NCBI GenBank assembly: GCA_019747735.1 | Contig: JAIEQL010000014.1 | Span: forward strand, 5,101-69,100 | Direction of reading: 5' to 3' | Source of the DNA: Chthoniobacterales bacterium | Lineage (GTDB): Bacteria; Verrucomicrobiota; Verrucomicrobiia; Chthoniobacterales; UBA6821 | Length of the DNA stretch: 64,000 nucleotides | Part shown: piece after piece, positions 59,793-61,970 of the stretch | Position numbering within the stretch: the stretch's first letter is position 1 | Layout: the number at the start of each line of letters is the position of its first letter | Made by a program: the position numbers and the translations under genes | The notes under the pieces: model-generated | Told to the model about the DNA's origin: nothing | Seen by the model: the letters and a program-made list of their open reading frames with translations, nothing else | Database searches by the model: none

Positions 59793-60302
59793 ATGAACGA
59801 TCTTACTAACTCTTCTTATTTTAAGCTCCTTACAGACCTTCTTAAAACAATTAACCAGGAGGAAGTCATCGAGGTGATTAACAAAGAAGAAGGATTAGTT
59901 GAATGGAAGGTTAATGAGCTGATGTTACGCCTCTTTCCTCATCAGCTAAGTGAGGAAGAAATCCCAGAACCCGATGCTCTTATTGTTGAGGCAGATCTCC
60001 TGTTGCTGGATTTAGAAAATCGGGAGCTCAATCACGATCGCTTTCTCATCCTCCATCAGCTCAACGCCGTAAGCCGCGTGCGCACAGGGATTGTCGCTTC
60101 TATTACCCAAGAGGGAATGATTTCGATCAACAAAATCATACCGTTGGCAAACTTAACTCAAGAAGAGCTGCTCAAGCAATTGGGAAGAGTGATTCAAGCA
60201 GCTCAAGATCTCTATCAAGGTTGGAATGAATTGGCTCTTCAACGCCGAGAGAAAAAAGAGACGCTTTCCGTAGCGGGAGGAACACTTGATCAAATAGCAT
60301 AA
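59793..60302 (+). CDS. Small acidic protein, possible CesT/SycE-type (class I type III secretion) chaperone
   Basis: 169 aa with no signal peptide. The hydrophobic pattern YFKLLTDLL..GLVEWKVNELMLRLFP..ALIVEADLL..FLILHQLN..GIVASITQEGMISINKIIPL..LTQEELLKQL..AAQDLYQGW resembles CesT-family chaperones. Its stop is 3 nt before the kinase ATG. Confidence 0.4.
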   Translation: MNDLTNSSYFKLLTDLLKTINQEEVIEVINKEEGLVEWKVNELMLRLFPHQLSEEEIPEPDALIVEADLLLLDLENRELNHDRFLILHQLNAVSRVRTGIVASITQEGMISINKIIPLANLTQEELLKQLGRVIQAAQDLYQGWNELALQRREKKETLSVAGGTLDQIA

Positions 60303-60305
60303 AAA

Positions 60306-61970
60306 ATGTTTTCCAAAATTTATTCTCAAATCAAAGCGCCTTCGCTAGTAATACAGGGCGAGAAGCCAACGGATAAAAAGACAGTAGGTGCAGGTTACCG
60401 TTATACGGAGACTGATCAAGAAGAAGCTAATAAGGAATTAAGCAGAATCCTTGGCCTTGTTGGCTCCGATACAAAAGCCATTGAATCAGGAGCCTTGAGG
60501 CTTGTTCAAAATTGGGATGGGAGTTTTGAGCTCAAAAAACGAACTCTTACCCCTTACCACTTGTTTAGCTTTTTAGGGTGGGGACGCGATATTGAGGCGG
60601 CAGATAACTATGTTCGGGGAGTGATGAAGGCGGCTTTGGGATGTGATAGCAACGCTACTAATCATCCTTTAAGTAGCTACCTAACCAATAAGGGAAAGAT
60701 GACTACGGAAGAAGTGGTCGGTTGTCTTTCTACTATTGTTGCTCGTGATATTGAGCTTGAGGAAAAAAGGCCAATAGGGAAAAAGAGCCTTTTAGCATCA
60801 ACAGGTGGAACGTTGTCCATGGCTAAGACCGGAAATAAAGTGCTCGCAATGGAAACCGAAAGTCAGTTGCCCCTTCTTGGTATTAAGTTGGGCAACAAGA
60901 TAGGCAGCGGAGGCTTTGGTACTGTTTACCATGCTGCTCTCAAAGGTCAACAAGAGCAGAGGCACGTTGTTAAAATAGAACAGATAGATGACTCCAGTTT
61001 TAAAAATATAAAAGAAGACGGCGATAAACTACCTTTTGATCAAAGGGGAGAGTTAACTGCTTGGACTGCAAAAAACATCCCTTGCGCTCAGGTGATGAGA
61101 CCAGTTTTTGTTATTGTAGCTATTAAAAAAACTTCACTCGCTGATATTGAGTATCACTATCTTTCTCCATCGGAGGCTAAGGCCTTTACTAAAAAAATAG
61201 GTGACCAATATCCAAAAGCAAAAGCTGCCATTGCTGCTGAGCTGATGGAATATATTCCAGGAGAAAGTCTGGAAGAGATTGTACGGAGGAATAAAACTTT
61301 TTTTGATCCCTCTTCGTGGGGCTTTAAAAATACACTCAACGGACTCTTTAAGGAGTTCAAGGCGGCCTATGAAAATCACATAATCCATCGCGACAGGAAA
61401 CCTGCCAATATCATTGTTACTGGAAAACTCGATGAGAAAGATGACAATTGTATAAAGAGTATTGATTATGGTCTAGCAGCGAGGGTGCCAGTTTCTGGTG
61501 TTTTTTCTCGAATTGTTGGTACATGGTCTTACATGGCTCCACATATACGCTTAGATAAGAATTACGGCCCACAAGTTGATGCTTACAGCATAGCAATGAC
61601 TCTTCTTCAGCTTATTGATCCAAGTAGTTTTAATACTTTCTCTTACTTTCTGCAGATCGATAAAAATAATGGTCAGTATGGTAGCGGTGATTCTAAATTT
61701 AATGACTTCGTAACTCAAATGAAGGAAATTGATGGCACTCCAGAAAGTTATCTCAATGCTTATTTTAAACAGGTTCATTCCGTATTTGCTTTTATAGGCC
61801 CTCCTCCAGCAGCTCAAAAAATACTAAACAAATCCAAAAATGCCCGTATTAAAGACCTCATTGGTCGTTGCTTTCAGGTGGCAGCAGGAGGAACAAATGT
61901 GGAGAGCAATTTTAAAGATCTCTACCAGAAGTTTGCAGAGTTTCAAAAAGAGAATGGTTACCAATTATGA
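60306..61970 (+). CDS. Eukaryotic-like (Hanks-type) Ser/Thr protein kinase with ~190-aa unknown N-terminal region
   Basis: Gly loop IGSGGFGTVY, Lys HVVKIE, catalytic loop HRDRKPANIIV, DYG in place of DFG (IDYGLA) and SYMAPH in place of APE. Confidence 0.85.
   Translation: MFSKIYSQIKAPSLVIQGEKPTDKKTVGAGYRYTETDQEEANKELSRILGLVGSDTKAIESGALRLVQNWDGSFELKKRTLTPYHLFSFLGWGRDIEAADNYVRGVMKAALGCDSNATNHPLSSYLTNKGKMTTEEVVGCLSTIVARDIELEEKRPIGKKSLLASTGGTLSMAKTGNKVLAMETESQLPLLGIKLGNKIGSGGFGTVYHAALKGQQEQRHVVKIEQIDDSSFKNIKEDGDKLPFDQRGELTAWTAKNIPCAQVMRPVFVIVAIKKTSLADIEYHYLSPSEAKAFTKKIGDQYPKAKAAIAAELMEYIPGESLEEIVRRNKTFFDPSSWGFKNTLNGLFKEFKAAYENHIIHRDRKPANIIVTGKLDEKDDNCIKSIDYGLAARVPVSGVFSRIVGTWSYMAPHIRLDKNYGPQVDAYSIAMTLLQLIDPSSFNTFSYFLQIDKNNGQYGSGDSKFNDFVTQMKEIDGTPESYLNAYFKQVHSVFAFIGPPPAAQKILNKSKNARIKDLIGRCFQVAAGGTNVESNFKDLYQKFAEFQKENGYQL

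Follow-up and report, generated by a model that had tools for sequence, protein, structure and literature searches.

The window analyzed here is a 64,000-nucleotide (nt) stretch of contig JAIEQL010000014.1 from a Chthoniobacterales bacterium (assembly GCA_019747735.1, positions 5,101 to 69,100 of the forward strand), and our subject is a pair of adjacent genes within it, one for a small acidic protein with the predicted fold of a type III secretion (T3S) chaperone and the other for a divergent Hanks-type Ser/Thr kinase. The chaperone gene (59793..60302, + strand) starts with ATG and encodes 169 amino acids (aa), with its TAA stop codon at 60300-60302. The kinase gene (60306..61970, + strand) starts with the ATG at 60306 and encodes 554 aa. 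At the junction, TAA-AAA-ATG (60300..60308, + strand), a gap of only 3 nt separates the two open reading frames (ORFs), both of which lie in the same frame; this arrangement suggests an operon with coupled translation. An earlier note on this DNA, made from the letters alone, had described the same layout, a 169-aa ORF lacking a signal peptide that ends 3 nt before a 554-aa ORF, and the coordinates and sequence agree with that description. Both ORFs can be taken as real genes because the smaller has 38 homologues and the larger has family members at many loci. NCBI lists exact copies of the two proteins as products of a Chthoniobacterales bacterium MAG (metagenome-assembled genome), on a contig of 144 kb (locus tags K2W99_*).

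The presumed location of the promoter is the intergenic region immediately upstream (59550..59792, + strand). A consensus scan of this region found no sigma-70-like site on the + strand, and inspection by eye of the regions upstream of the chaperone-kinase pairs revealed no evident promoter motif common to them. What the region does contain is a solo 31-nt arm of a dispersed hairpin repeat (59704-59734), located 59 nt 5' of the chaperone ATG; it is because of this arm that four Logan contigs (k = 31) all begin at position 59712. The GC content of the pair is the same as that of its flanks, in a window of 43% GC overall. The pair is thus not a recent island, and we rejected recent horizontal acquisition on that ground.

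The small protein has a pI of 4.67 and neither a hydrophobic N-terminus nor a signal peptide; in both size and acidity it falls within the range of class I T3S chaperones. Its 38 homologues are 48-76% identical, and an alignment of 32 of them (A1) has a mean column identity of 52%, with 25 invariant columns. Matches to the Pfam family CesT (PF05932) were obtained at E < 0.1 for 21 of the 32 aligned homologues (best E 1.5e-6); the same family is precomputed for four homologues, and NCBI calls one homologue a CesT family chaperone. The AlphaFold2 model derived from A1 scored well (predicted local distance difference test, pLDDT, 83.5; predicted template-modelling score, pTM, 0.75) and gave the topology a-b-b-b-a-b-b-a, with helices at residues 8-19 (plus 23-28), 77-97 and 123-162 and strands at 36-40, 43-50, 62-71, 100-104 and 109-117. 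When this model was compared with the PDB using Foldseek, the first 31 or so matches were all class I T3S chaperones (E from 2.6e-5), among them SycH, YscB/SycN, ExsC, SchA, STM2138, VecA, CesT, SycE, SycT, SigE and SicP, with target-normalized template-modelling (TM) scores mostly of 0.7-0.8 at sequence identities of 6-22%. CesT-like folds from outside T3S (2plg and DR_1245/4h5b) ranked lower, with TM scores of 0.38-0.48 and root-mean-square deviations of 7-10 Å. The small protein is therefore well supported, on the basis of its predicted structure, as a class I T3S chaperone, which bears out the CesT-like character that the earlier note had read from its sequence. Compared with the structurally characterized class I chaperones, with which it has fold, size and acidity in common, the modelled protein has a long C-terminal helix (residues 123-162) and an extra short helix at its N-terminus.

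The kinase, by contrast with its acidic partner, is a basic protein (pI 8.85). Pkinase (PF00069) was the only Pfam family matched, with 80.7 bits against a cut-off of 31.7 (E 1.5e-22) and the best stretch at residues 313-437. The catalytic domain spans residues 191-554 (60876..61967, + strand). Along it, on the same strand, lie the G-loop GSGGFGTVY (residues 200-208; 60903-60929), VVK with the beta3 lysine K223 (residues 221-223; 60966-60974), HRDRKPAN (residues 361-368; 61386-61409), the DFG variant DYG (residues 387-389; 61464-61472), and SYMAPH (residues 408-413; 61527-61544), in which APH (411-413) is a variant of APE. All five of these motifs had been quoted in the earlier note in support of a Hanks kinase, and with Pkinase well above its cut-off that assignment stands. 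The family has a specific insert between the beta3 lysine and the hinge; QRGDL(AA), PIFVIVAL and EYHYLP are conserved in the family alignment (A2), as is the helical C-terminus. Word-limited database searches returned two full-length relatives of the window kinase, at 47% and 30% identity, and local searches of the fetched loci brought the family to about 15 members.

Comparison with solved structures placed the kinase only in general terms. The best 60 matches to the single sequence were generic eukaryotic kinases, led by CERK1, IRAK4 and PAK; the best 60 to the family profile were likewise generic, and at their head CDPK, PhK, ROCK and PAK scored the same as a bacterial kinase of PknB type. 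An origin from a specific eukaryotic group (IRAK-like or receptor-like kinases) was rejected because the family profile scores generic kinases and the bacterial PknB-type kinase equally. The term 'eukaryote-like', used previously for this protein, thus holds only in the general Hanks sense and is weakly specific as a label. None of the known effector kinases of type III secretion systems (T3SS), namely YopO/YpkA, NleH/OspG, SteC and HopBF1, was among the best 60 solved-structure matches. Of the NCBIfam models, LegK1 reached 34 bits against a cut-off of 550 bits and chlamydial PknD gave a sub-threshold match (E 0.11); no other chlamydial kinase model matched.

Residues 1-190 of the kinase (60306..60875, + strand) contain no signal peptide and begin with a polar stretch rich in Ser, Ile, Lys and Gln. 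They match nothing in Pfam or NCBIfam, just as they had gone unrecognized on first reading. Within them lies a conserved module at residues ~55-107 (GALRLVQNWDGSFELKKRTL..YHLFSFLGWGRDIEAADNYVRGVMKA; 60468..60626, + strand), for which alignment A2 yields the consensus KPGTLRLVKNWDG..ELKRRQWYQFWNF.G.RDTGRA.AYVNSL and which is kept in most family kinases. The module also occurs in kinase-less or truncated paralogues that adjoin chaperone or kinase genes; these lack the catalytic loop, and some retain part of the N-lobe. Such paralogues were found at L005:627-1595 (322 aa), L008:13203-14312 (369 aa), L013:579-920 (113 aa), L021:8964-9890 (308 aa) and L032:7053-8162 (369 aa), and could be decoys, adaptors or decaying copies. 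Presence beside chaperones even where the kinase domain is missing is as expected of a chaperone-binding or targeting module, and residues ~55-107 are accordingly our candidate for such a region, as judged from sequence conservation. A database search with the module profile returned only three fragments and missed known family members; local hidden Markov models (HMMs) were used instead.

Gene neighbourhoods were assembled from exact-protein look-ups, a scan of GTDB species representatives and a scan of JGI metagenomes, and were analyzed with local HMMs. The chaperone family proved to be confined to low-GC MAGs of freshwater Chthoniobacterales/Spartobacteria, representing 12 GTDB species, and divides into two subgroups, A and B. 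MAGs identified as sisters of the window genome are GCA_049314455.1 (JBMOFC01), JAIPKF01, WBXG01, CAIWMF01, DATEBV01, JAIEQF01, VHCR01, CAYOAN01, CAYYAN01 and JAPLTJ01. In subgroup A, to which the window gene belongs, the chaperone has a family kinase as its immediate neighbour, on one side or the other, at about 12 distinct loci: the window, L005, L007, L008 (twice), L009, L010, L011, L013, L014, L015, L025/26 and L032. A frequent context (L007, L008, L025, L026 and L032) consists of genes for an LplA-like protein, the kinase, the chaperone, a metallo-beta-lactamase and an ABC transporter. Single contigs or genomes sometimes have two or three pairs, as in L008 and in Deming_bin.170 (L011, L012 and L014). 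Because the adjacency recurs at about 12 independent loci and in both orders, it is far beyond chance, and the pairing of small ORF and kinase put forward in the earlier note is no peculiarity of this window.

The two partners have evolved at different rates: identities among the kinases are 30-51%, as against 48-76% among the chaperones. Decayed or degenerate kinases are also present, including a split gene (L025/L026), an internal deletion (P0049) and a change of DFG to NGR in one of the L008 copies. Fast divergence of the cargo, duplication, and decay beside a conserved chaperone together fit accessory effector genes. In the split gene, the kinase is interrupted at the same point in two separate assemblies (L025:10001-11583 and L026:10001-11562), ahead of the chaperone, leaving a 181-aa N-terminal ORF and a Pkinase ORF of 309-335 aa; the split is either a real frameshift pseudogene or programmed.

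An exhaustive search of 1.84 billion representative proteins with the A1 profile gave 53 matches, about 50 of them distant relatives with E values of 1e-13 to 1e-20. Four neighbourhoods of these distant relatives were examined, all of high GC content (55-64%), and two of the four lie within T3SS clusters. The first of these, L029, comprises sctR, sctS, sctT, sctU, the secretin gene sctC, a CesT gene, a gene for a 1439-aa protein, the CesT-like relative and, immediately after it, a gene for an 855-aa Pkinase protein. The other, L030, is a Ysc-type cluster of sctU-T-S-R, sctW, sycN, yscX, yscY, sctV and the CesT-like relative, with an 835-aa kinase 9 kb away. In IMG the apparatus proteins of these two loci are named type III secretion proteins C, U, V and W. 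The third neighbourhood, L027 (GCA_037975565.1, JBBCBH010006105.1, positions 1-9820; 59% GC), has at least five Pkinase genes or fragments beside the CesT-like relative, adjoins a two-partner secretion (TPS)/ShlB pair, and looks like a kinase effector island. In the fourth, L028, two tandem CesT-like relatives adjoin a PATR autotransporter-repeat protein, and no T3SS gene was found within its 11 kb.

The kinases of L029 and L027 align with the window kinase over its whole length. On the clade kinase HMM they score 92-128 bits in one continuous alignment, as against about 60 bits, in two pieces, for IRAK4 controls. L029 is the nearest actual relative of both window genes for which a context is known, and its order is the same, chaperone then kinase. 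Its chaperone (160 aa) scores 69.7 bits on the clade profile; the alignment of its kinase to the family HMM (92 bits) takes in the full model, N-terminal module included, and in a two-sequence test the N-terminus of this kinase matched the module HMM collinearly though weakly (13.6 bits, E 7e-6). The differences are considerable, in that the L029 kinase is only ~20% identical to that of the window, has a C-terminal extension of ~300 aa and is encoded at 61% GC rather than 43%. Moreover, sctRSTU and sctC directly adjoin the L029 pair, while the neighbours of the window pair are housekeeping genes. From these alignments the chaperone-kinase couple appears to predate the freshwater clade, and in at least one lineage, that of L029, it is part of a T3SS locus.

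Among described systems, the closest in function is SycO-YopO/YpkA of Yersinia, in which gene arrangement and protein types are the same. There, the gene for a class I chaperone reportedly lies directly upstream of that for a Hanks-type kinase injected by the T3SS. As in that system, a small acidic CesT-fold protein is encoded here immediately upstream of a kinase with a non-catalytic N-terminal region, which by the same likeness would carry the secretion signal and the chaperone-binding domain. The resemblance does not extend to the kinase sequence: no relationship to YopO was detected (the best 60 matches among solved structures do not include it), Pfam gave no sign of a GDI-like or actin-binding domain at the C-terminus, and the N-terminal module is specific to the clade. 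Within the Planctomycetes-Verrucomicrobia-Chlamydiae (PVC) superphylum, a further likeness, by description only, is to chlamydial Pkn5, a Hanks-type kinase encoded within a T3SS cluster in the phylum that is sister to Verrucomicrobia.

What the data show is a chaperone fold, a kinase with its catalytic motifs intact, a linkage that recurs, a module in common, and descent of both genes from relatives in T3SS clusters; physical binding, a T3SS in the genome, secretion and a host target are what we infer. The reading in the earlier note, of a secreted host-targeting kinase with its chaperone, is supported in part. We lean towards reading the locus as an operon in which a class I T3S-type chaperone is encoded with its cognate cargo, the divergent Hanks-type kinase, which would be exported by a T3SS encoded elsewhere, and judge this to be somewhat on the probable side. 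The sequence of events would be as follows: the acidic chaperone, probably as a dimer, would bind the N-terminal region of the kinase, most likely at the module of residues ~55-107, and would thereby keep the kinase soluble, inactive and competent for secretion. Next, the chaperone would hand its cargo to a type III export apparatus whose genes lie in another part of the genome. Finally, the kinase would be injected into a eukaryotic cell, for example that of a protist or alga, where it would phosphorylate host proteins. What is new is the chaperone subfamily, together with a kinase family that shares an N-terminal module, both expanded in freshwater Chthoniobacterales.

Several results weigh against export by a T3SS. 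The match of the window protein itself to Pfam CesT (14.2 bits, E 0.048) is below the 22-bit cut-off. A profile search with A1 found no sequence relative of the chaperone family in the PDB at E ≤ 10, which makes this family a branch of the CesT superfamily that is novel in sequence. The AlphaFold2 model of the kinase, made on a six-sequence alignment, is too poor (pLDDT 43) to judge whether residues 1-190 are extended or globular. A Pfam scan of 30 of the other large ORFs in the window found no apparatus genes, in agreement with the earlier note; it returned only housekeeping genes, two giant subtilase proteins and one 1690-aa ORF without a match. Nor did tblastn searches seeded with the L029 and L030 sequences of SctC, R, S, T, U, V, W, SycN and YscX find any of these genes in 360 kb of clade loci (about 25 loci, each covering ~10 kb either side of the chaperone genes) or in the added metagenome loci, although this absence is weak evidence because the loci reach only ~10 kb around the chaperone. 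We found no report of a T3SS in Chthoniobacterales in the literature. The distribution of T3SS in Verrucomicrobia is patchy, and we know of no verrucomicrobial T3SS other than that of Verrucomicrobium spinosum. The V. spinosum system has been ascribed to horizontal transfer from a Desulfovibrio-like donor (PMC3542564). Lastly, the subgroup B chaperones, which are 50-53% identical, are single-copy and have no kinase nearby; their conserved surroundings (DUF1802, an uncharacterized gene, pyrG, the chaperone, speA and gcvT-H-P) hint at a role that is not tied to this cargo.

The uncharacterized gene in these subgroup B loci, between DUF1802 and pyrG and two genes upstream of the chaperone, encodes a conserved protein of 466-546 aa without a Pfam match. 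The gene is at L016:6851-8251, L017:1546-3090, L018:6755-8281 and L019:3946-5586, and in L022 and L023 it is fragmented. In the protein, a polar N-terminus is followed by a hydrophobic centre that is bilobed and rich in Gly and Ala, and the C-terminal part is a coiled coil. Because this layout recalls T3S translocators or Inc-type membrane proteins, the protein may, by analogy, be a cargo of the subgroup B chaperone.

The alternative that we take most seriously, while still thinking it unlikely, is that the clade has no T3SS, having lost it or never had one, and that a former chaperone-effector pair has been retained, with duplication and diversification, as an intracellular module of kinase and regulator. 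The chaperone would then be an exapted relic serving in the cytoplasm as a stoichiometric stabilizer, inhibitor or regulator of the kinase, with some other partner in subgroup B, and the CesT-fold protein would belong to the conserved core (compare subgroup B, between pyrG and speA), as a factor controlling eukaryote-like kinases or other partners in the cytoplasm. T3S chaperones with regulatory partners are known from CesT-CsrA, ExsC-ExsD/ExsE and the chlamydial Scc4 with RNA polymerase, and the CesT-CsrA structure (5z38) is among the Foldseek matches of the small protein, ExsC-ExsE being 3kxy. The failure to find an apparatus gene in the ~25 clade loci or the scanned window ORFs, the single-copy, kinase-free and housekeeping character of the subgroup B neighbourhood, and a level of conservation (the 52% mean identity and 25 invariant columns of A1) that is unusual for class I chaperones all favour such a relic, as does the nature of the clade, which consists of freshwater planktonic MAGs for which the literature searched reports no host association. 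On the other hand, effector and chaperone genes are commonly scattered away from those for the apparatus, such that absence within ~10-kb flanks says little; frequent duplication, decay and pseudokinases suit accessory effectors better than a core regulator; and the nearest outgroup pair, in L029, is inside a T3SS cluster. The opposite of the relic is that freshwater planktonic Chthoniobacterales, which are abundant and regarded as free-living, may have a T3SS and an expanding arsenal of injected kinases for use against protists or algae.

The remaining explanations are less probable again. A module resembling a toxin-antitoxin or anti-phage system, in which the kinase arrests growth or causes abortive infection and the small acidic protein inhibits it, strikes us as improbable. 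The layout, an operon of two genes in which the small product is acidic and the larger one a basic enzyme, would suit it, and PADLOC matches the kinase to PD-T4-6, a defence kinase that acts as a single-gene system (E 5e-19), as well as to mad6. These PADLOC matches, like those in NCBIfam, are confined to the generic core (residues 313-437), score no better than Pfam Pkinase and fall far short of the family cut-offs; those in PADLOC reach at most 67 bits, and NCBIfam MAD6 scores 36 bits against a cut-off of 460 bits. The small protein matches no PADLOC model and has the fold of a secretion chaperone, gene order is variable, and relatives lie within T3SS clusters. Membership in PD-T4-6 or in MADS as mad6 was therefore rejected, the match being to the core only and the partner being without a PADLOC model. 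Still harder to credit is export by another route (the flagellar gate, two-partner or type V secretion, or vesicles), with the CesT-like protein as an adaptor; the L027 relative does adjoin a TPS/ShlB pair and that of L028 a PATR protein, and the two giant subtilase proteins of the window are probably surface-bound or secreted, but the kinase has neither a Sec signal peptide nor a TPS domain, and we know of no CesT-fold chaperone that serves the flagellar gate, two-partner or type V secretion, or vesicle export. Least credible of all is that the adjacency is meaningless and the small ORF an unrelated cytoplasmic protein of YbjN type. The YbjN family (PF10722), Deinococcus DR_1245 and Synechococcus 2plg do have the general alpha/beta fold in common with it, in bacteria without a T3SS, and four of the 32 A1 homologues match YbjN weakly (best E 0.0089). 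CesT matches outnumber these by 21 to 4, the fold matches favour T3S chaperones, and the adjacency, known from about 12 loci and in both gene orders, recurs in distant relatives of high GC content. YbjN-type identity was rejected for the window protein, which has no YbjN match and for which YbjN-type structures gave TM scores below 0.5.

Freshwater Chthoniobacterales/Spartobacteria are usually treated as free-living degraders of polysaccharides. If the window genes are a true chaperone-effector couple, they define a new family of effector kinases with a recognizable N-terminal targeting module, and they would point to a previously unrecognized way in which these widespread freshwater Verrucomicrobia interact with eukaryotes. 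The conserved chaperone sequence and the module could serve as simple markers for mining further cargo proteins from these genomes. If the lineage instead has no T3SS, the pair would clearly exemplify how a secretion chaperone can be turned to regulation in the cytoplasm.

The hairpin repeat whose solo arm (59704-59734) lies upstream of the chaperone gene is a dispersed element of ~147 nt with terminal inverted repeats (AGAGGGTGTCTTGAAAA / TTTTCAAGACACCCTCT) and a GC-rich core. Its full copies are at 2964-3108 (+), 12762-12908 (+) and 17531-17676 (-). The element folds as one long hairpin (-58.9 kcal/mol, z = -6.7) and matched no Rfam family; it looks like a miniature inverted-repeat transposable element (MITE), a repetitive extragenic palindromic (REP)-type element, or a novel structured RNA. 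Its copies tend to sit near tRNA genes, which occur in the window at 1705-1776, 12974-13045, 13075-13146 and 18632-18716, and a gene for a PD-(D/E)XK family transposase (17705-18541, + strand) lies between one copy and a tRNA gene.

Elsewhere in the window, the two giant proteins (2106 aa, 6398-12718, + strand; 2194 aa, 36234-42818, + strand) each combine a C-terminal subtilase S8 domain with a long N-terminal region that has no Pfam match; the 1690-aa ORF lies at 18916-23988 (- strand). Two gene fusions were also observed. One joins MurC to MurB (29737-32046, + strand), a fusion already described in Verrucomicrobium spinosum (PMC4803751); the other joins 6-phosphogluconolactonase to RpiB (45111-46373, - strand) within a pentose-phosphate gene cluster. 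Upstream of the chaperone-kinase pair, tandem paralogous genes at 55332-56177 and 56187-56951 (both + strand) encode proteins of 281 and 254 aa with N-termini that resemble signal peptides.

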